Positions 1 to 7,977 are shown, counted from the first letter of the stretch. The stretch is DNA of 7,977 bases from an uncultured archaeon (GCA_964463155.1 CAYXAY010000004.1:4469-12445); one strand, 5' to 3'. Program-made: numbers and translations. The notes: generated by a model from the sequence alone, not told the origin.

Positions 1-757
1 TGTAGACTGGCATAAGGAATACACTAAATATTAAAATAAATATCAGAAAGAACAAAAAAATATTAATTTCAAACAAAAGAGTTATTTTGCTTCTTTGCCT
101 TTCTTCTTTTTCTTTTCTCAAGTGTTCTGTTGACTCCAAATAATCCTTTATGACATCAGAAAGATTTGATTTGTTGTCAAGAACATCTATCATCCTTGAG
201 AAAAACGCATATTCTTGCTCAGAGTAGGTATTGCTACAAATGTATTTTACTGTTCCTTTAAGGTTATTGTTCAAATCAGACATTGCAAGAATCTTTTTGG
301 ACTCCTCTGTAAGTAATTTGTTTTTTTCAAACTTTTGAAACAACAATAGCACCTCTTTTACTGTCAAGTTTTTGTCCTGCAAGACAGAAAGGTGCTTTAT
401 GCTTCTTTCAAGTTCGTTTTCTATTTCCTTTTTGTTTGACACCACAATATAGTGCGGATATTTATATAATGTGATAAAGACAAATCCTCCAAAAGTTGTT
501 GCAATTATTATTGTAAGGATAAATGTAAATATTGTAAACAGAATGTTTAGTTTTAACATCACAAAAATCATCAAAAACTCAAGGCAAAAACCAACAATAA
601 ATGATAAAAAGATTATGTTTGAAAGATAGGTTTGTATGTCTTCGTCAATATTTGTTATTGCTAGTGTCTTTGTAAGCTCTTTAAATCTTGGAGCTATTCT
701 TTTTGAAATGTCTCCAAAGAAGAAATCAGAAACTTTTGAGAACTGTTTGCCAAACAT
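1..757 (-). CDS. FlaJ/TadC-like platform membrane protein (T2SS-F family) of a type IV pilus/archaellum-like machine; C-terminus lies beyond the window edge
   Basis: Absent from the supplied ORF track because it runs off the window. My own translation from the ATG at 757..755 is open for all 252 codons: MFGKQFSKVSDFFFGDISKRIAPRFKELTKTLAITNIDEDIQTYLSNIIFLSFIVGFCLEFLMIFVMLKLNILFTIFTFILTIIIATTFGGFVFITLYKYPHYIVVSNKKEIENELERSIKHLSVLQDKNLTVKEVLLLFQKFEKNKLLTEESKKILAMSDLNNNLKGTVKYICSNTYSEQEYAFFSRMIDVLDNKSNLSDVIKDYLESTEHLRKEKEERQRSKITLLFEINIFLFFLIFILIFSVFLMPVY. The layout is a short cytoplasmic N-terminus, two TM helices, a ~130-aa helical soluble domain and then another TM helix, which is the T2SS-F/FlaJ arrangement. 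The start lies 1 nt after the stop of the FlaI-like gene. A GGGGT Shine-Dalgarno-like element (complement of 766-770) sits 8 nt upstream. Confidence 0.7.
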   Translation of the reverse strand, partial: MFGKQFSKVSDFFFGDISKRIAPRFKELTKTLAITNIDEDIQTYLSNIIFLSFIVGFCLEFLMIFVMLKLNILFTIFTFILTIIIATTFGGFVFITLYKYPHYIVVSNKKEIENELERSIKHLSVLQDKNLTVKEVLLLFQKFEKNKLLTEESKKILAMSDLNNNLKGTVKYICSNTYSEQEYAFFSRMIDVLDNKSNLSDVIKDYLESTEHLRKEKEERQRSKITLLFEINIFLFFLIFILIFSVFLMPVY

Positions 758-758
758 A

Positions 759-3134
759 TTATTCTACCCCTGCTTGGATGTTTAGTTTGGTTAGTAGTTG
801 CTCTTTGTTTTGATAATAGTCGTTGACTATGTTGTTAAAGTCTAGACTATCTGTTATGCCTGAATCGATAAGCCATCTTAATAGTTTTTTGTGTCTTATG
901 AAATTGACTATGCTTATGTTTGAGGAAATTAGGTTAATATGGAAATCCATTTCTTTTTCTATATATTCAACCACATTGTATTTGTTGCCATTGTATATCT
1001 CTGTGATGTTTCTTATCTGCATCTGTTCAACATTGTTACTGTTTGTTCTTCCCAATTGAATTATTATTTTATTAAAACCCATTATCTTTGATTTTTTCAA
1101 ATATTCCCCTAAGATGCTTTTGTCAAGATACAGCATGTTTATCTCATACCATTTGGTGTCAAATAAATCCTCTGTAAAGTTGTCAAGTATTAGGTAATCG
1201 GATCTTTGGGAAATTGCTTGTGAAAGAATTGTTTTTTTACTTATTGAGGAGTTGTCTAAAATCAATTTCTTAATCCAGTTTTTCTGAGGCAATTTTATGT
1301 AATCAAATGATTGTATGGTGGTTATCTTCTTATCAGGATAGAAATGTGCTAATGCCGATAATAATAATGTGCTGTCTCCCCCAACAATAACCACTTGATA
1401 ATCTTCGTCTATGGCTGTCCATATATATGAGAATATGTCTGGAGCACCAATGCCTAGGTTAATGAGATTTACTGGTGTCAACGGATCTTCCAGATATTTC
1501 TTTATAACAAAGGAAGAACCTTTATTGCTTGTATCCCCTACAGAATATAATCCTTCGACCTTGTAGCCATTTGGCAAATAACCATTTATTACTGGCTGTG
1601 TAGAATTGACTTGTAAGCCCATTATTTTTGTCAAAGATAGAACATACTGGTTCAATTTTGCTATACTTTCAAACTTAAGATTCGTTTCTAGTCCCCCATA
1701 CAAGAGATGATACACTGTTATTGGCATATGCTCCCCTGAACAGCTTATTTCAATTATGTTTTTGTCCTCTAGCACACTTGATAAAAATCCAAATCCCGAA
1801 AAATCCCTTTTTATGAAATTAAAATAAAGTTTATTTTCTAAATCAGTTAGATTATAAGATAATTTGTCTATTGTTAGGTCATATATCTTTTGTATATAGC
1901 TGTTGATTGTTTGTTTATCTCCTTTAAAGGACAAGTAGTTTGAATCAATTGAATCCAAGAACAATCTTTTTATTTCCTTATAGGTTTCTTCTTGGTTCTT
2001 GCTTAGCTCTGGCTGGATTATGTTATATAACAAACCATTTGAGGCATAATCCAGATTAACAAATGTAAATTCATCTATATTGTATTTCTCAGAAATTTCT
2101 TTTCTATCAAGTATTGCTGTTTTTGGTTTAATACTATAGATTAGTTCTTGCATTTTTGATTGTGATTTTGGATTAATGCTTTCGGATCTTTCCTTTTCTG
2201 TCTTTGCTTTAAAATCTGTTGGAAGTATGTAATCAAAAGGAGTTTTTGGCTTTTGGTCTTGTTCTTTGAAGACTTTTGAAAATTCTTCTTTTTGTTTGAT
2301 TGCTTGTTGGTTACTTTTTTGAATAATATTTTTTTGGTTTTTTATCTTTATTTCTATGTGTGGATTTGGAACTACTTTCTTATCTTCCATTACAAAAATT
2401 GGGGCAGTTGGTGTTTTTTCTACAGGCTTTTGTTCATAGCTTGAAAACTCTTTTATAATTGCCTGAGATATCTTTGTCTCATCAGGAATTGAAACAATTT
2501 CTGGAATTTCTATTTCTTCTAGTAACGCCTGTATCTTTTTTGGTTTTAGCTCAGGTCTTTTGTTTTGGTTTAGGTATTCTGTTTGAATTACTTTTGGAGT
2601 AGCTTCTTTGTTTGCTATTGAATCTATTTTAGCATAGAGGTGAGAAACATTCATGCTTTTTATTGGAATCTTCTCAATTTTTGGTTGGTCGCCAAGAAAG
2701 CTTATCGATTCAAAAAATGGCAGTTCTTCTTCTACTTTTTCCAGGTGTTTATTTAGGGAATCCAATAGCCCGTCCATATTTGGGGCATCTTTATCCACTA
2801 TGTTATCCAAATGATTAGAGGTTATTTCTTCATAATGTTCTGTTAGTTTGTTTGATATTACTTGTAGTCTTTTCTTTTCAATCTCTAATTTTAATGAGTT
2901 TTCAAGATTGTCAGGGACAGTATTTTTTTCTTTTTGCACAGCCATGATTTTATTTTCTTTATTCTTGGAATAGTCGTGTGGTTTTAATTTTGGATTTATT
3001 TTTTGTATTTTGTGCTGATAGCTATCTTGTTTGTGTTTTTCAGAACTTAGATTAAATTTTGGGGACACAGTTTTAATTATCTTATTTGAATCATCAAAAT
3101 CTTTGATTCTTTCTAGTTTTTTTAACTCGACCAT
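759..3134 (-). CDS. FlaI/GspE (T2SSE) family secretion-ATPase homolog with degenerate NTPase motifs and a ~350-aa low-complexity N-terminal extension
   Basis: 791-aa ORF ending in TAA. From about aa 355 it follows the archaeal FlaI/PilB pattern throughout. N-terminal domain: YNIIQPEL, KRDFSGFGFLSSVLEDKNIIEISCSG (compare rd.GyG...l.D..iEDIs.nG). Middle: LPNGYKVEGLYSVGDTSNKGSSFVIKKY..PLTPVNLI (compare LpdGsRi...ftIRkf...P.tp.dLi) and PDIFSYIWTAIDEDYQVVIVGG. C-terminal tail: KKLLRWLIDSGITDSLDFNNIVNDYYQNKEQLL (compare the FlaI tail R..iL.wl...gi.dy..v...i..yy.dpe.vl). The canonical Walker A position reads VGGDSTLLLSAL instead of G.T.SGKTT.LNAL. Confidence 0.85.
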   Translation of the reverse strand: MVELKKLERIKDFDDSNKIIKTVSPKFNLSSEKHKQDSYQHKIQKINPKLKPHDYSKNKENKIMAVQKEKNTVPDNLENSLKLEIEKKRLQVISNKLTEHYEEITSNHLDNIVDKDAPNMDGLLDSLNKHLEKVEEELPFFESISFLGDQPKIEKIPIKSMNVSHLYAKIDSIANKEATPKVIQTEYLNQNKRPELKPKKIQALLEEIEIPEIVSIPDETKISQAIIKEFSSYEQKPVEKTPTAPIFVMEDKKVVPNPHIEIKIKNQKNIIQKSNQQAIKQKEEFSKVFKEQDQKPKTPFDYILPTDFKAKTEKERSESINPKSQSKMQELIYSIKPKTAILDRKEISEKYNIDEFTFVNLDYASNGLLYNIIQPELSKNQEETYKEIKRLFLDSIDSNYLSFKGDKQTINSYIQKIYDLTIDKLSYNLTDLENKLYFNFIKRDFSGFGFLSSVLEDKNIIEISCSGEHMPITVYHLLYGGLETNLKFESIAKLNQYVLSLTKIMGLQVNSTQPVINGYLPNGYKVEGLYSVGDTSNKGSSFVIKKYLEDPLTPVNLINLGIGAPDIFSYIWTAIDEDYQVVIVGGDSTLLLSALAHFYPDKKITTIQSFDYIKLPQKNWIKKLILDNSSISKKTILSQAISQRSDYLILDNFTEDLFDTKWYEINMLYLDKSILGEYLKKSKIMGFNKIIIQLGRTNSNNVEQMQIRNITEIYNGNKYNVVEYIEKEMDFHINLISSNISIVNFIRHKKLLRWLIDSGITDSLDFNNIVNDYYQNKEQLLTKLNIQAGVE

Positions 3135-3170
3135 ACCGATATATATTTATAGCAAATAATAAGGACATTA

Positions 3171-3180
3171 TATTTATAAA
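3171..3180 (-). promoter_or_regulatory. Candidate archaeal TATA box (TTTATAAATA on the minus strand), internal promoter for the FlaI-like/FlaJ-like gene pair
   Basis: It lies in the only sizeable gap (56 nt, 3135-3190) of the minus-strand cluster, 37-46 nt upstream of the ATG at 3134. It matches the TTTAWATA-type archaeal TATA consensus and is embedded in a 16-bp perfect palindrome at 3169-3184. Confidence 0.4.
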
Positions 3181-3190
3181 TATATTTAAC

Positions 3191-3922
3191 TTATACAAAA
3201 GAAACCGCAAAATTGCTTAGAAACGATAATGCATTAAAATAAGTTAAAACTCCTATGATTGAGTAAGCAATAATCATAGTCACAACAAATGGGATCAAAG
3301 GAGACACCCACACTTTTTTTATACCAAATTTTTTTGAAAAGATTTTTAACTCCTCAATCTGTTTTTCAGGAGAGCTGTCTGGTCTGATGATTGTTTTAGA
3401 AATTATTTTTTTATTAACGAAACTAAACTTTTCAAGTGGGGTATAGAAGTTTTTTAGTCGATCTATCCTTTTTGGGAAACCAAATGTCATAAGCATCATG
3501 CTTTCACCGATTGGTTTTTTTGGAAAATTGCCTTTTAGCAGATTAAAGAAAAACAGAGCTATAGGTAAAGACAGCATTAAAATCATCGCCAAAAGAAAAA
3601 CAAATGGCGCAAACAGAACAGACACTCCGCTAACAGCGCTTATTGCCATTAATGCTAGAAGATCCCCCTCGCCAATATAGGCATAAATTGTTAATTTCCC
3701 CAAAAGGTAAATAATTACCACAAAAACAAAAGTGATTATCAATTGTAAAAGATACATAAAGACAAAGCCCTTTATAATTCCAATAACAACAAAATAAACA
3801 AAACCAATTGCAGATAATACAAACAAAGGAATAATGTTTATTTCTCGTGTCTTTATGTCTTGATAGCCAAGATAGATTAGGCAAGAAAGTCCTAAAAAAA
3901 ACATTGGTAGTAACGCATTCAT
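3191..3922 (-). CDS. Peptidase A24 family archaeal prepilin/preflagellin peptidase (FlaK/PibD/EppA type)
   Basis: 243-aa polytopic membrane protein. The first catalytic Asp is in YQDIKTREINIIP (D22). The second is in the GxGD motif IGEGDLLAL (D87). The 65-residue spacing resembles what I recall for PibD and FlaK. A soluble insertion (FPKRIDRLKNFYTPLEKFSFVNKK...EKQIEELKIFSKKFGIKKVWVSPLIPF) precedes the last TM helix, as in the archaeal A24 C-terminal domain of FlaK-type enzymes. Confidence 0.85.
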   Translation of the reverse strand: MNALLPMFFLGLSCLIYLGYQDIKTREINIIPLFVLSAIGFVYFVVIGIIKGFVFMYLLQLIITFVFVVIIYLLGKLTIYAYIGEGDLLALMAISAVSGVSVLFAPFVFLLAMILMLSLPIALFFFNLLKGNFPKKPIGESMMLMTFGFPKRIDRLKNFYTPLEKFSFVNKKIISKTIIRPDSSPEKQIEELKIFSKKFGIKKVWVSPLIPFVVTMIIAYSIIGVLTYFNALSFLSNFAVSFV

Positions 3923-3931
3923 GGTTTACTC

Positions 3932-4870
3932 TTATTTTTCTGCTTTTGTTTTCTTGGAATCAAATGCTGTTTTTGTAAGATGTATCAAATCATCATAGGC
4001 TTTTCTTTTTGTTATCCTTGCCGTTGACCTTTCAAACAATTCATCTGTGTATTTCCCTGGTGGTCCAAAAGACTTTATTTGTCTTTTTGCTATTTTGTTA
4101 AGTATTGCTTGGTTTTGAATAGTTGTGTTTGTTTCGTCAAGAACCGTTTTTGCTAAGTCCATTGTCAGGACTCCACTACCAATCCTGTCAACATAATCTG
4201 TTCCTGAACCGGCAGTTACAAAATTTGCCATCTCTGAAAGCTTTATTGTTGCAGCAAACTTGTATACCATATCGTAGCTTTTTTGGTCAATCTTTTTATT
4301 TAGCCTATCTGCAACTTTTGATATTCCCACAATATTTAATGCTTTGTGAGATTGGACAAATTCTAAGACTTCTATTAGGGTCTTTAAGAAAAATGAATCA
4401 TACATGTAATAGGAGAGATAGCCAATCATTCCATTGTAAGCTTCTACTCCTACATTTTTCTCTTTAATGAATTTTTCAAGTTTTGAAAGTCCCATCTTAT
4501 AACTTGCAGAATTATGTATTAATCCAAAGGGATGTGCTATTACAAAAAGATAATTTTTTCTTTCACACAGGTCATAGATTCTTTTCATTGAAACATTTTC
4601 CTCAAAGAAAACACTATAGCTGTAAATGTCTTCATTTGGAGCATAGACTAAAACATCGCCTGCATCTGTTGCAATTGTCAAACCAGGGATTAAAACATTT
4701 GCTTTTGGTTTATCCTTTAACAAATCAAAATATGCCTTTTTTGGATTCTTGTTTGAATAATCAGTTATTGCTGTTCCAAGAAGATTGTTTTTGTTAACAA
4801 ACTGCCAATATCTTTTACTTGATTGCTTTCTTTTCAAGAAATGTGTGTTTAAATCCAGGTTATATGGCAT
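3932..4870 (-). CDS. PHP-domain-like (polymerase/histidinol-phosphatase superfamily) protein with several metal-ligand substitutions; function unknown
   Basis: 312-aa ORF ending in TAA, starting 2 nt after the stop of the upstream gene. Motif-level resemblance to PHP: NLDLNTHF (canonical DxHxH), GLTIATDAGDVLVY (canonical GxExs..gHxLxy), FVIAHPF (AHP motif intact), GVEAYNG (canonical iEvxNg) and TAGSGTDYVDRIGSG (canonical GSDAH...iG). The assignment rests on remembered motifs, not on a search. Confidence 0.45.
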   Translation of the reverse strand: MPYNLDLNTHFLKRKQSSKRYWQFVNKNNLLGTAITDYSNKNPKKAYFDLLKDKPKANVLIPGLTIATDAGDVLVYAPNEDIYSYSVFFEENVSMKRIYDLCERKNYLFVIAHPFGLIHNSASYKMGLSKLEKFIKEKNVGVEAYNGMIGYLSYYMYDSFFLKTLIEVLEFVQSHKALNIVGISKVADRLNKKIDQKSYDMVYKFAATIKLSEMANFVTAGSGTDYVDRIGSGVLTMDLAKTVLDETNTTIQNQAILNKIAKRQIKSFGPPGKYTDELFERSTARITKRKAYDDLIHLTKTAFDSKKTKAEK

Positions 4871-4872
4871 AA

Positions 4873-5487
4873 TTATCTTTTATTTATCCTTACATCAAGA
4901 ACATACGCTTCTTTTTCTGTTAAGATTACTGGGTTTAAGTCAAGTTCCAATAGATTCTTATCTTTTCCCATATTGCATACTTTTTCAAGCAATAAAATAA
5001 GTTTTGAAATAGCATAGCTTTTTCCTCTTGCAAAAAAGTATTTGCTAATCTTTGTTGAATAAATCATTTCTTCAATTTCTTTTTTTGTTATTGGAAGAAT
5101 CCTTATCACCGTATCATCTTCTTGCTCTGTGTATATTCCACCTTTCCCAAAAACAATAACTTTTCCAAACTGAGCGTCATTGTTAATTCCAATAATCAGT
5201 TCAAGTCCTTTTACTTGCTTTTGAATTACCACTTTGCCTTTTGTCTTTTCTTTTTTTAGAACATTTTCTAGGTGATCAACGGCTGAAAAAAGTGCTTCTT
5301 TTGAATAAATGTCTGTGATTATTGCTTTGCTTTCTGTCTTATGTATCAGATTGGAACTAAGCTTTAGGACATATGGAAAATCCTTGAATTTTTCAAGTTC
5401 CTTTCTTGAAATTGCCTTTGTCACAAGAACAGATATCTTCCTTTTTTTCAGGTATTCCATTGATTCTAAAAGATTTAACCAAGCCAT
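4873..5487 (-). CDS. ATP-grasp domain protein related to the beta subunit of ADP-forming acetyl-CoA synthetase (acetate--CoA ligase family, ATP-grasp_5 type)
   Basis: 204-aa ORF. It fits the ACD-beta/ATP-grasp_5 pattern end to end: LLESMEYLKKRKISV (l.e.e.k.lL..ygI), FPYVLKLSS..IHKTE (fPvVlKi.s..i.HKte), VVIQKQVKGLELIIGINNDAQFGKVIVFGKGGIYTEQEDDTVIRILPI (vlVq.m..g.ElivG...Dp.FGpvi.fG.GGi.vE...Dva.rl.P) and LELDLNPVILTEKEAYVLDVRI (ElDiNPl.....a.alDari). Confidence 0.75.
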   Translation of the reverse strand: MAWLNLLESMEYLKKRKISVLVTKAISRKELEKFKDFPYVLKLSSNLIHKTESKAIITDIYSKEALFSAVDHLENVLKKEKTKGKVVIQKQVKGLELIIGINNDAQFGKVIVFGKGGIYTEQEDDTVIRILPITKKEIEEMIYSTKISKYFFARGKSYAISKLILLLEKVCNMGKDKNLLELDLNPVILTEKEAYVLDVRINKR

Positions 5488-5516
5488 AAATTACTAACCC
5501 CAAAGCATTACTTTAC

Positions 5517-5524
5517 TATTTAAA
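5517..5524 (-). promoter_or_regulatory. Candidate TATA box (TTTAAATA on the minus strand) for the five-gene minus-strand cluster
   Basis: Perfect TTTAWATA match with 29 nt between it and the ATG at 5487. This implies a very short or near-leaderless 5' UTR, which is common in archaea. Confidence 0.5.
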
Positions 5525-5612
5525 AACCTATATATTACTATAAATATATAGTATATAAATATATCTAAATTCTTTAGATTTAACATCAATTTAAAATCAT
5601 TGTGTTTTACTA

Positions 5613-5620
5613 TTTAAATA
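5613..5620 (+). promoter_or_regulatory. Candidate TATA box (TTTAAATA) for the beta-CASP RNase / NMD3 transcription unit
   Basis: Perfect TTTAWATA match 44-51 nt upstream of the ATG at 5664. The predicted ~20-nt leader contains the purine-rich aaagagagataaa. Confidence 0.5.
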
Positions 5621-5663
5621 TTTAGAAATACATTTACAAAAAAACAAAACAAAGAGAGATAAA

Positions 5664-6965
5664 ATGAAATTACGGTGCCTCGGGGCAGGACAAGAAGTTG
5701 GAAGAAGTGCCCTATTACTGAAAGGCAAAGATAACATACTGTTGGATTATGGTTTGAAACTTAATCCTACAACACAAACAAAAGAAGATTTGGAATTACC
5801 AGCAAAGACCAAACATCCAAAAATTGTTAAAGAAGAATTGACTGGAGTAATCCTAAGCCATGCTCATCTTGACCATTCTGGCGCAATACCCACTCTTTAT
5901 AAGAATTCAAATGCACCATTGTTCTTAACAGAACCAACATTAGAACTTTCAAACCTTCTGTGGAAAGACACTCTTAAGATTGCAAAGCTTACTGGAGAAG
6001 ATTGTGAGTTTAAGCCAAATCATGTAGATGATACAAACAACTCTGCATTCTATATAGATTACAGAGTGCCTGTCCAAATATCTCCAAACACAAGAATTAC
6101 TTTCTATGATGCAGGACATATTGTGGGAAGTGTTATGCCTCTTATTGAAATGGATACGAAAAAAATACTTTATACCGGAGACTTTAGAGCAACTCAAAGC
6201 CAGATGTTTAAAAGTTATGACAAAAAACTGCCACAGGTGGATGTATTAATAACAGAAACAACCTATGGAGATATCCCACACAAAGACAGAAAAGAACAAG
6301 AAAAGCTTTTGATTGACGAGATTAAAGAAACAATTGACAATAGAGGAATAGTAATTCTTCCTGCGTTTGCAATAGAAAGATCTCAAGAATTAGTAAGCAT
6401 TCTTGATAGATACAACATAAAGGCACCTATATACTTAGATGGTATGGCAAAAAAAGCAACAACCATCTTTGCTCAATATCCTGATCAGTTTTATGATTAT
6501 TCTAGATTTAAGAAAGCAGTTGATAAGATTGAGTTTATTAAAAACCAAAAGACAAGAGAAAAGATTGTCTCTGCAAACACCTCTTGTATTATCATAACAA
6601 CTGCAGGTATGCTTGAAGGTGGGCCGGTTTTAGGTTTTATTAGAGACTTGGGGGGCGACCCCAGAAACAAAATAATCCTTACTGGTTACCAGGTTGAAGG
6701 AACAAACGGGAGAAGATTACTTGATAACGGAAAACTTTATATTGATGGTAAGATTTATGCACCAAGAGCAAAAGTAACAAAATATAACTTCTCGGCACAT
6801 GCTGACAAGAACGAAATATTGGAGTTAATTAAAATTGTTAATCCAAAGAAAGTCATTGGCATACACGGAAATAAAAATGTTACCTTTAATTTTAAGGCAG
6901 AACTAAAAAAACTAGGAATAAATGCAGAAAATCCAGCAACTGGTGATATGATAGATTTAGATTAG
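5664..6965 (+). CDS. Metallo-beta-lactamase fold beta-CASP ribonuclease, KH-less archaeal CPSF homolog (aCPSF2-like)
   Basis: 433-aa ORF ending in TAG. All signature motifs are visible: LLDYG (motif 1 Asp), SHAHLDHSG (HxHxDH, nt 5859-5876), DAGHIVGS (motif 3 His), LYTGDF (motif 4 Asp), TETTYG (beta-CASP motif A), FSAHAD (motif B His) and GIHG (motif C His). At ~430 aa with no N-terminal KH domains it fits the aCPSF2 group rather than aCPSF1. Confidence 0.85.
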   Translation: MKLRCLGAGQEVGRSALLLKGKDNILLDYGLKLNPTTQTKEDLELPAKTKHPKIVKEELTGVILSHAHLDHSGAIPTLYKNSNAPLFLTEPTLELSNLLWKDTLKIAKLTGEDCEFKPNHVDDTNNSAFYIDYRVPVQISPNTRITFYDAGHIVGSVMPLIEMDTKKILYTGDFRATQSQMFKSYDKKLPQVDVLITETTYGDIPHKDRKEQEKLLIDEIKETIDNRGIVILPAFAIERSQELVSILDRYNIKAPIYLDGMAKKATTIFAQYPDQFYDYSRFKKAVDKIEFIKNQKTREKIVSANTSCIIITTAGMLEGGPVLGFIRDLGGDPRNKIILTGYQVEGTNGRRLLDNGKLYIDGKIYAPRAKVTKYNFSAHADKNEILELIKIVNPKKVIGIHGNKNVTFNFKAELKKLGINAENPATGDMIDLD

Positions 6966-6975
6966 AAAGAAAAAC

Positions 6976-7746
6976 ATGCAAAGATTTTGTCCTAAATGTG
7001 GAAAGAATGTTCCTGAAGAGAGGGTGATACATAACTTTTGTTTAAATTGTTATGTTGAAGACCATCAGGTGATTATTGCTCCTACATTTGAGATAACCTA
7101 TTGCCCTAAATGTAAGAAATTCAAATATGCAAGACGGTTTTTTGATAATAAAGAAAGTCTTGAAAGAGAACTTGTTAAGCATATAAAAATAAAAGACATA
7201 GAGCAGGCAAAGGCTAATGTTAGTTTAATTCTTGATTTTGAAAAGCACGAATATTATGTAAGTGTTGTTGCTAAGGCTTTAATCGCTAATTCTATTCAAG
7301 AAATTGCCATGGAAAAGGATATTTCTTTAAGGGTTGAACCCTGTGTAGAATGCCTTAAGGAATCAAGCCATTATTACACAACAATCTTACAATTAAGGTT
7401 TGACACCAAAGACTTGTTAAAAGAACTTCTGCCGATTCTTGTTAAGCAAATAGAAAACCAAGTAAGAACTATCAATAATGCAGAAACAAGTAAAAACAAG
7501 CCATTCTTTATTGCAAAGACTATTAAACAAAAGACTGGTATTGACATTTATTTAAATGATATTGACCATACCGAAAAGGTAAGAAAAACATTACTTTACA
7601 ATAAGCAGGTAAAAACCTGGCAAAGAACAAGAAGCCTTGTTACTGCAGACAAAGCCGGCAAAAGAAAATATCGTCATACCATCTGCTTACATTACGGACA
7701 ATTGCCAACAGATAATCCACAAGAATTACCTGAACAAAAAAATTAA
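6976..7746 (+). CDS. nmd3: NMD3-family protein (archaeal homolog of the 60S/50S subunit biogenesis factor), short form
   Basis: 256-aa ORF starting 10 nt after the beta-CASP stop. It has the N-terminal Cys clusters CPKC-x13-CLNC, then CPKC, then CVEC followed by SHYYTTILQLR. The last matches the NMD3 hallmark C..C....g.YyEAilQvR. Confidence 0.75.
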   Translation: MQRFCPKCGKNVPEERVIHNFCLNCYVEDHQVIIAPTFEITYCPKCKKFKYARRFFDNKESLERELVKHIKIKDIEQAKANVSLILDFEKHEYYVSVVAKALIANSIQEIAMEKDISLRVEPCVECLKESSHYYTTILQLRFDTKDLLKELLPILVKQIENQVRTINNAETSKNKPFFIAKTIKQKTGIDIYLNDIDHTEKVRKTLLYNKQVKTWQRTRSLVTADKAGKRKYRHTICLHYGQLPTDNPQELPEQKN

Positions 7747-7825: not shown

Positions 7826-7977
7826 TCAACCAAGTCTTGACATCCTAGTATTTAGTTTTTGTGTTATGGAAAAGAACATTGCAATTATTTCTGCAATAAA
7901 AGAAACTATTGGAAAAAGAGTAAGGGATACTGCTGCAGAAAGAAATGAATATCTACCAAATCTTTTTGGGTCTATTG
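7826..7977 (-). CDS. Candidate C-terminal end of a membrane protein gene entering from the right edge (alternative to the plus-strand reading of the same DNA)
   Basis: The minus-strand frame is open from the window edge to the TGA at 7828..7826: IDPKRFGRYSFLSAAVSLTLFPIVSFIAEIIAMFFSITQKLNTRMSRLG*. This is one clean ~29-aa TM helix followed by a basic tail. No homology is recognised, and the opposite strand is also open. Confidence 0.3.
   Translation of the reverse strand, partial: IDPKRFGRYSFLSAAVSLTLFPIVSFIAEIIAMFFSITQKLNTRMSRLG
7866..7977 (+). CDS. Candidate N-terminal start of an unidentified soluble protein running off the right edge (alternative to the minus-strand reading)
   Basis: From the ATG at 7866: MEKNIAIISAIKETIGKRVRDTAAERNEYLPNLFGSI..., open to the window edge. 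This frame is open from 7803 onward. The sense strand is purine-rich like the other soluble-protein genes here. No homology is recognised and there is no convincing TATA box at the right distance. Confidence 0.25.
   Translation, partial: MEKNIAIISAIKETIGKRVRDTAAERNEYLPNLFGSI

Follow-up and report, generated by a model that had tools for sequence, protein, structure and literature searches.

Do five closely packed genes on one strand of an archaeal genome form a single system, or a pilus-like module with neighbours that belong to something else? The question is raised by a stretch of 7,977 nucleotides from an uncultured archaeon (GCA_964463155.1, CAYXAY010000004.1:4469-12445), here called the window, in which positions are counted from the first letter. 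The source is a low-GC genome of Iainarchaeota (Diapherotrites, DPANN), and the G+C content of the window is ~31% throughout. Calling of open reading frames (ORFs) places five co-directional genes on the minus strand across 1-5487: they encode an ATP-grasp protein, a PHP-like protein, an A24 peptidase, a FlaI-like ATPase homologue and a FlaJ-like platform protein, and are separated in this order by spacers of 2, 9, 56 and 1 nt. An earlier note on this DNA, written from the sequence alone, had named the same genes with exactly the same gaps, and had linked the ATP-grasp and PHP-like genes to a pilin-less pilus module. If true, such a link between ATP-grasp, PHP and pilus biogenesis would be a new pathway connection.

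The descriptive part of that note stands. The ORF calls agree with it, motif and family alignments bear out that two of the proteins (FlaI-like and PHP-like) have degenerate active sites, and a motif scan of the window ORFs finds no class III signal-peptide gene, for which the note had seen no room. Its interpretation divides: the type IV pilus-like module is real and unusual, the ATP-grasp link is unsupported, and the PHP link is a minority possibility. We think it fairly probable that the locus is a lineage-specific type IV pilus-like module whose two upstream neighbours are kept beside it by regional synteny in a packed genome.

Gene neighbourhood in related genomes

The comparison set holds three loci fetched through PHP homologues and 15 more from GTDB species representatives scanned with an alignment of the FlaI-like protein, among them the complete genome of Candidatus Forterrea multitransposorum. 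The synteny table comprises 21 loci, annotated with one pipeline of ORF calling plus blastp, and with Pfam. The region is collinear. On the flank side the order is ADK, TrkH, TrkA, NMD3 and beta-CASP up to a divergent spacer, with NMD3 and beta-CASP reading away from it. The array on the other side runs (ATP-grasp), (DHH), PHP, (a prenyltransferase on the opposite strand), A24, FlaI-like, (FlaJ1 and FlaJ2), DUF192, (class III-signal proteins), followed by L16, methyltransferase and NDK; brackets mark the variable members.

The A24, FlaI-like and DUF192 genes occur in every locus that extends far enough and are absent nowhere; the first two are also in the window. FlaJ1 and FlaJ2 are found in most loci and are missing from L004/5 and L008, and the window shows FlaJ1 only. 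The PHP gene stands upstream of A24 in the window and most loci and is absent from L013. ATP-grasp is present at its position in 7 of the 12 informative species loci and absent from the other five. It occurs in the window clade (L004/5, L007-L011), L017 and L021, and is missing from the Forterrea lineage (L001-3, L019, L020), L014, L018, L006 and L013; the absences cover at least five lineages that keep the module, one of them a complete genome. A DHH phosphoesterase gene follows ATP-grasp in L004/5 and L017 only. The opposite-strand prenyltransferase gene lies between PHP and A24 in L006 and L021, abuts A24 at a contig end in L012, and is absent from all other loci. With ATP-grasp variable, these two genes inserted and PHP absent from L013, the five genes of the window do not recur as a conserved block. 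Judged by this comparison, the conserved core is the A24 gene, a spacer of 56-117 nt, a FlaI-like gene without nucleotide motifs, a split platform and DUF192.

Tight spacing is no evidence of function here, because unrelated gene pairs are packed as closely. Junctions within ATP-grasp/(DHH)/PHP/A24 and within FlaI-like/FlaJ1/FlaJ2/DUF192 mostly measure -26 to +30 nt; beta-CASP and NMD3 are 10 nt apart in the window, and in L004 the methyltransferase and NDK genes overlap and two tRNA synthetase genes are 14 nt apart. The A24/FlaI-like spacer measures 56-117 nt in 16 of 16 loci and is a candidate internal promoter because no other junction is long in all relatives. In the window it is an A+T-rich stretch of 56 nt (3135-3190, minus strand) that contains the TATA-like sequences TTTATAAATA and CTATAAATATAT. 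The spacings had been taken to imply co-transcription or translational coupling of all five genes; the equally tight unrelated pairs undo this argument, and the long conserved spacer suggests two transcription units, the second with a putative internal promoter. Adjacency to PHP likewise carries little weight, because the whole region is collinear. This pattern of gene order indicates that the proposed link of ATP-grasp and PHP to the pilus genes is mostly gene packing and inherited synteny.

FlaI-like protein family

Type IV filament machines are thought to need an active hexameric ATPase of the PilB/FlaI type. The FlaI-like gene (759-3134, minus strand) encodes a FlaI/PilB/GspE-family protein of 791 aa, which the NCBIfam FlaI model matches over residues 342-650 (E value 1.6e-36). 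PDB sequence matches to A. fulgidus GspE (2e-39) and Sulfolobus FlaI (9e-27) cover residues 327-652, and a weak match to PilB3_C at the C-terminus (3e-4) falls below the cutoff. The AlphaFold2 (AF2) model keeps the two-domain fold, with a predicted local distance difference test score (pLDDT) of 80-92 for residues 330-785, and Foldseek aligns it to 2oap (7e-33, template modelling (TM) score 0.74). A. fulgidus GspE (2OAP) and Sulfolobus FlaI (4II7/4IHQ) are thus closest in both sequence and structure, with N- and C-terminal domains both kept. These are active hexameric ATPases, whereas the window protein lacks GK[ST] and has lost the other three motifs. Its Walker A, canonically GGTASGKT, reads GGDST---LLL with a deletion of three residues; the Asp box (IEDTxE) has become IQSFDY and Walker B (GE(I/V)RG) DNFTE; the His box, present in canonical members, is deleted. 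Every close family member lacks the four motifs as well. Going by its motifs, the FlaI-like protein cannot be a canonical ATPase.

The loss extends to a whole family. A HMMER scan of 1.84 billion representatives shows a sharp break: 18 clusters (50% identity) match at 2e-283 to 1e-45, and 18 of 18 lack [AG]xxxxGK[ST]; nearly all matches below them have P-loops of the GGTASGKT type. In four members taken from separate loci the P-loop is degenerate, at mutual identities of only 37-57%, and the loss of the motif is therefore old and retained. The ratio of non-synonymous to synonymous substitution rates (dN/dS) was taken from L004 and L011, the least saturated pair (dS 0.6-0.9; dS is saturated for most pairs). 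It is 0.16 for the FlaI-like gene, 0.20 for A24, 0.10 for ATP-grasp and 0.045, the lowest in the region, for PHP-like; the housekeeping genes beta-CASP and NMD3 have 0.07 and 0.08. By these ratios purifying selection acts on the genes, and neither of the two "degenerate" proteins is the product of a pseudogene. A whole family that has lost the nucleotide motifs and kept its fold, its platform partner and selection would make a useful natural experiment on what the ATPase contributes apart from hydrolysis. A limited search of the searchable literature returned no description of a Walker-less PilB/FlaI family, a pseudo-ATPase PilB or DUF192 with pili, and a 2016 census of archaeal type IV pilus loci makes no mention of DPANN, PHP, or inactivated or Walker-less ATPases.

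The ATPase fold is preceded by an N-terminal extension of ~330 aa, which is K/E-rich, of low complexity and modelled by AF2 with low confidence; across the family its length is 330-620 aa. In the window it occupies 2150-3134 (minus strand). Here and in L001, L014, L016, L017, L019 and L020 the whole protein ranges from 788 to at least 1226 aa, and the extension shows a few conserved short motifs (PFxESISFLGDxPKIxKI, LYAKID, LxEEIExPE). The paper describing Forterrea (PMC5905446) reports repeat-driven mis-assembly in "a secretion-related ATPase", which is probably this FlaI-like gene.

Peptidase, platform and class III substrates

The A24 gene (3191-3922, minus strand) encodes an A24B class III signal peptidase of the FlaK/PibD type, 243 aa long. 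It matches Pfam Arc_PepC_II (1e-9) and the FlaK model (1.3e-9), and Peptidase_A24 falls just below the Pfam cutoff (1.6e-5). In the alignment to FlaK (3s0x), D22 falls on QDFRSREI and GEGD, with D86, on GGGD. Both catalytic aspartates are kept, and the protein is predicted to be an active peptidase.

The platform gene of the window, FlaJ1 (1-757, minus strand), is the first half of a split FlaJ/PilC-type platform and is cut by the left edge, which leaves 252 aa visible. It has one T2SSF domain (1.1e-9) and matches ArlJ/FlaJ (3e-12) at profile positions 4-168 of 555, so that a T2SSF platform protein adjoins the ATPase-fold gene, with only FlaJ1 visible in the window. FlaJ1 has 280 aa in relatives, and the window copy loses its last ~28 aa at the edge. 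Its identity to FlaJ1 of L007 and L009-L011 (280 aa) is 72-77%, and in each of these loci a FlaJ2 of 375-380 aa comes next. Because FlaJ1 matches the N-terminal part of the profile, FlaJ1 and FlaJ2 look like a split FlaJ.

Class III signal peptides were scanned for with a simple motif rule. Genes with signals of the KKGISPIIGIVLLVLVASILVG type follow directly after DUF192 in nine related loci (L001-3, L006, L012, L014, L016, L017 and L019-L021); MSKKGISPIIGIVLLVLVASILVG, KKAISPVIAIIFIVLIAAILTG and RKKSISAIISVVLLILVTAVLVAG are examples. The proteins are ~170-1200 aa long, with LamG, PKD or chitobiase-type domains; contig ends truncate some of them and frameshifts split others. Deeper-branching relatives have one to three of these large proteins. 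Substrates thus do belong to this kind of module, and by their lectin and Ig domains they look like adhesins. That it adjoins giant lectin-bearing pilin-like adhesins makes the module a pointer to DPANN host attachment. In the loci of the window clade (L004/5, L007, L008, L010, L011) no class III-signal gene was found at this position: DUF192 is followed by a non-coding stretch of ~470 nt and then by L16. The description of the module as pilin-less is thus right for the window, which has no class III ORF, and locally for its nearest relatives, and wrong for deeper relatives, which carry class III-signal proteins after DUF192. Pilin-lessness is probably local to the window's genome or clade, to judge by the nearest relatives. 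The class III proteins downstream in relatives come close to the finding, pilin genes with a canonical ATPase just beyond the left edge, that the earlier note had itself set against its proposal.

The ~470-nt stretch between DUF192 and L16 was located in L004 (14740-15210), L007 (14897-15373), L008 (12925-13395), L010 (14729-15175) and L011 (14887-15360). It has 81% mean column identity at dS ~0.6-0.9, with long invariant runs and hairpin-capable segments, and at the nucleotide level its conservation far exceeds that of the neighbouring proteins. Rfam gives no match to the stretch (best E 0.13), and it contains no class III ORF. It sits where deeper relatives have adhesin genes, is predicted past the left edge of the window, and by its conservation is a candidate for an unannotated small RNA or regulatory element. 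The predicted order past that edge is the end of FlaJ1, FlaJ2 (~375 aa), DUF192, this stretch and L16 (rpl10e).

Canonical ATPases in related lineages

An ATPase with intact motifs is found elsewhere in related genomes. In L013 a ferredoxin-fused T2SSE ATPase of 596 aa (GNTGSGKTT; VIGEIRN) comes directly after the module, together with two small platform-like genes. Homologues of this protein are common in metagenome-assembled genomes (MAGs) of Iainarchaeum. One shares its contig with the L021 locus (L021/L022) and lies ~8 kb past L16. Cluster members are found on the 839,632-nt Forterrea chromosome, on the 48,270-nt contig of L001 and in the PHX47 assembly, which also holds a PHP homologue; another homologue sits on a contig whose length, 63,384 nt, exactly equals that of a contig with PHP and ATP-grasp homologues. 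In all, a canonical T2SSE ATPase fused to ferredoxin and accompanied by platform genes of its own is found in four related lineages. A candidate for the window clade was rejected: its contig has 54% GC as against 28% and belongs to a different organism.

The ATPase regions of L013 (10080-13475) and L022 (8001-12714) share an N-terminal 4Fe-4S ferredoxin-like, cysteine-rich domain on the ATPase, small platform-like genes and a DedA/VTT gene. The fusion of a redox cluster to a PilB/TadA-type ATPase is unusual in itself and is widespread in Iainarchaeota MAGs.

ATP-grasp gene

The first gene of the array (4873-5487, minus strand) encodes a stand-alone ATP-grasp_5 protein of 204 aa. The Pfam match (8e-37) spans profile positions 9-219 of 221, that is, the whole domain, and PDB matches to PH1789 (8.5e-20) and to the beta chain of ADP-forming acetyl-CoA synthetase (ACD; 4xyl_B; 1.2e-17) align the HK[ST][DE] stretch. 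The protein is ACD-beta-like, with a complete ATP-grasp_5 domain homologous to characterized ACD beta subunits. With PH1789 and the ACD of Ca. Korarchaeum (4XYL) it shares the full-length domain of ~205 aa and the aligned HK[ST][DE]; unlike in ACD, neither the window nor the flanking DNA of the relatives has an alpha subunit. Homologues are all stand-alone, ~205-215 aa long and named acetate--CoA ligase family at source. One from another archaeon (40% identical) is divergent from beta-CASP and followed by an Ig-domain protein, with no pilus genes, and another (44% identical, L026) has an ACD alpha subunit gene 3.6 kb away. In Forterrea, the conversion of acetyl-CoA to acetate is reported to be the sole ATP-yielding step identified (PMC5905446).

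The simplest reading of these homologies is an ACD-type beta subunit of energy metabolism, probably with a role in acetate/ATP metabolism. By its distribution the gene is a facultative neighbour, dispensable for the module and outside the conserved core. Nothing points to the proposed supply of nucleotide-dependent chemistry to the module: the protein is ordinary and ACD-beta-like, and four related lineages have a canonical ATPase.

PHP-fold gene

The second gene (3932-4870, minus strand) encodes a protein of 312 aa with no Pfam match and no significant PDB sequence match. Its assignment comes from structure. An AF2 model built from 40 homologues (pLDDT 78, predicted TM score 0.76) shows the distorted (beta/alpha)7 barrel of the PHP superfamily, and its top 21 Foldseek matches in the PDB are all PHP domains (probability 0.82-1.0, TM-scores only 0.3-0.5), the best of them RNase AM, the PHP domains of PolC/Pol III alpha, Bad_1165 and Cv1693. 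The PHP-like label, which sequence models do not support, is thus borne out by the fold. The full set of metal ligands (H-x-H, D/E-H, H, E, H, D-x-H) is incomplete in the window protein, in which the family alignment, read by eye, gives DLNTH, AITDY, IAHPF, GVEAYN and SGTDY. About half of the family keeps the canonical DLHTH as motif I, which reads DLNTH in the window, and the terminal (C-terminal) D-x-H is seen by eye in no member of the family alignment; "PHP-like, degenerate site" is therefore a fair label. The alignment and the AF2 model also show a C-terminal tail that is basic, disordered and conserved. The best fold matches are YciV/TrpH-type PHP phosphoesterases (RNase AM, 7UG9; Cv1693, 2YB1; Bad_1165), and motif I is intact in about half of the window family; the window protein differs from them by DLNTH, the missing terminal D-x-H, an extra helical insert and the conserved disordered tail. 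We also considered the Rpp30 subunit of RNase P, another PHP-like protein, and rejected it: there is no Pfam match, and no Rpp30 among the 50 Foldseek matches listed.

The 49 clusters of homologues have identities of at least 55% throughout and come only from Diapherotrites/Iainarchaeum MAGs. From its position across the loci, the PHP-fold gene is most likely a tightly packed neighbour, frequent and separable, and in most lineages it probably shares a transcript with the peptidase gene.

The DHH/DHHA1-like phosphoesterase gene between ATP-grasp and PHP (L004, 8901-9998; L017, 5992-7116) has Pfam matches below the cutoff, with DHH and GHAYAAGG motifs seen by eye. In these two lineages the insert puts two phosphoesterase-fold proteins side by side.

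Interpretation of the module

In the reading we favour, a lineage-specific pilus-like module with two upstream neighbours kept by synteny, the A24 peptidase would trim adhesin-pilins at their class III signals. Together, the two platform halves and the dead ATPase homologue would serve as a scaffold for membrane docking or assembly, and ATP-driven work, if needed, may come in trans from the separate ferredoxin-fused PilB/TadA-type ATPase. The window clade has no adhesin genes at this position, and two of its members have also lost FlaJ1 and FlaJ2; the local copy is therefore a trimmed module.

Several points weigh against this reading. The comparison loci are all MAG contigs from one phylum, with our own annotation, so start codons and gaps are approximate. 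In L017 and L021, both deep lineages, ATP-grasp heads the array as it does in the window clade, and it may have stood there ancestrally. The canonical ATPase is known from related lineages and is hypothetical for the window's own genome and clade. Finally, PHP and A24 abut or overlap in the window and in 10 of 15 compared loci (-26 to +19 nt), and the PHP and FlaI-like families have the same narrow taxonomic range. Because of this tight junction and shared range, a real functional link between PHP and A24 keeps a share of the probability.

Such a link would make PHP the only true accessory: a non-catalytic or altered phosphoesterase co-translated with A24, acting in the maturation or modification of class III substrates or in regulation of the peptidase. 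Besides the junction and the restriction of both families to one clade, it can call on the very strong constraint on PHP (dN/dS 0.045) and on the conserved disordered basic tail, which resembles a binding motif. The usual insert beside PHP, a polyprenyl-diphosphate synthase, could hint at lipid-linked glycan chemistry. That same insert also counts the other way, as an opposite-strand gene that splits PHP from A24 in L006 and L021; in L018 the two are 90 nt apart, and in L013 PHP is absent upstream of A24. PHP is conserved like beta-CASP and NMD3 and unlike the faster-evolving module proteins, its best structural matches are nucleotide and RNA phosphoesterases, a DHH phosphoesterase adjoins it in some genomes, and in a region collinear throughout its place beside A24 says little. 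On balance we hold this reading to be unlikely, while giving it more credit than the two that follow.

That the module of the window clade is a decaying relic, which builds nothing after losing its ATPase motifs, its adhesins and some of its FlaJ genes, is improbable. The missing adhesin genes between DUF192 and L16 (L004/5, L007, L008, L010, L011) and the missing FlaJ1/2 (L004/5, L008) fit decay. The ORFs are all intact, however, and A24 keeps its catalytic aspartates; the dN/dS values of 0.16 (FlaI-like) and 0.20 (A24) come from a comparison of a locus without FlaJ (L004) with one that has it (L011), and the loss of the ATPase motifs is ancient and common to lineages that keep adhesins. A single functional operon of all five genes, in which ATP-grasp, and perhaps PHP-like, gives nucleotide-dependent chemistry or a modification to a remodelled appendage machine without pilins, is very improbable: it accords with the co-directional genes and their spacers of 2, 9 and 1 nt, with the ATP-grasp/PHP/A24/FlaI-like order of the window clade (with insertions also of L017 and L021) and with the dead cognate ATPase, but ATP-grasp is absent from five lineages that keep the module (a complete genome included), DHH and opposite-strand prenyltransferase genes are inserted inside the supposed operon, ATP-grasp homologues elsewhere lack pilus neighbours and one is near an ACD alpha gene, housekeeping genes are as tightly packed, related lineages have canonical ATPases, and adhesin-pilins follow the module in relatives.

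Set against known systems, the module of the favoured reading has parts from several. Archaeal adhesion type IV pili (PilB3-PilC3 with PibD in Haloferax volcanii; Aap and Ups in Sulfolobus) likewise have a PilB/FlaI-family gene next to a T2SSF platform and an A24 peptidase with two aspartates; class III substrates (here in the relatives) and the weak PilB3_C match are further likenesses. Unlike in these pili, the PilB-like protein is without the four motifs and has the low-complexity extension, the platform is split in two, DUF192 is constant, the peptidase lies inside the locus, and the substrates are proteins of hundreds to ~1200 aa with lectin or Ig domains, not small pilins. The archaellum (FlaI/FlaJ/FlaK) has homologous ATPase-fold, platform and peptidase families. 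Genes for FlaH (KaiC-like), FlaF, FlaG, FlaCDE/X and archaellins were found neither in the window nor in the 10-kb flanks of the relatives (called genes and Pfam), and the locus is not an archaellum. With Tad/Flp systems (TadA, separate TadB and TadC) the module shares two platform genes with one T2SSF each, and a TadA/CpaF-like ATPase accompanied by a pair of small platform genes is also present in relatives; the FlaI-like protein itself is closer to GspE/FlaI than to CpaF.

A bolder proposal, which we regard as doubtful, is that DUF192, the split platform and the Walker-less FlaI/PilB homologue form a distinct adhesin-display machine specific to Iainarchaeota, in which the dead fold, retained over a very long time, would act as a structural or regulatory hexamer, the machine would be energized in trans by a ferredoxin-fused ATPase or work free of ATP, and the PHP-fold protein, just as degenerate, would be a conserved partner through A24. 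Were this true, host-dependent archaea would provide the first pseudo-ATPase described at the core of a type IV filament-like system.

Promoter-like elements and flanking genes

The minus-strand array and the plus-strand flank are separated by a divergent spacer of 176 nt (5488-5663) between ATP-grasp and beta-CASP, with four TATA-like octamers. One of them is TTTAAATA at 5517-5524 (minus strand), 30-37 nt upstream of the ATP-grasp ATG, where a TATA element had been noticed earlier. Four of the six TTTAWATA matches of the window fall inside the spacer; window-wide, the motif is not above chance (6 seen against 3.9 expected in a sequence of 70% A+T), and the element at 5517-5524 is for this reason weak evidence. 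The octamers of the spacer are putative promoter elements. No tRNA genes and no Rfam families were found in the window.

Beyond the spacer lie a beta-CASP ribonuclease of 433 aa (5664-6965, plus strand), recognized by profile match, and, 10 nt past it, an NMD3 homologue (6976-7746, plus strand). The aCPSF1 match of the beta-CASP protein starts only at profile position 176, and the protein is therefore KH-less. It also matches the type VII CRISPR Cas14 model (5e-76), below the cutoff. The gene is divergently paired with ATP-grasp in the window, and in a distant archaeon (L024) an AsnC gene lies in between. The last feature is a partial ORF (7830-7977, minus strand) that converges on NMD3 and holds the 49 C-terminal codons of a hydrophobic protein. 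It is not TrkA, which stands there in all relatives, and synteny thus breaks at the right edge of the window.

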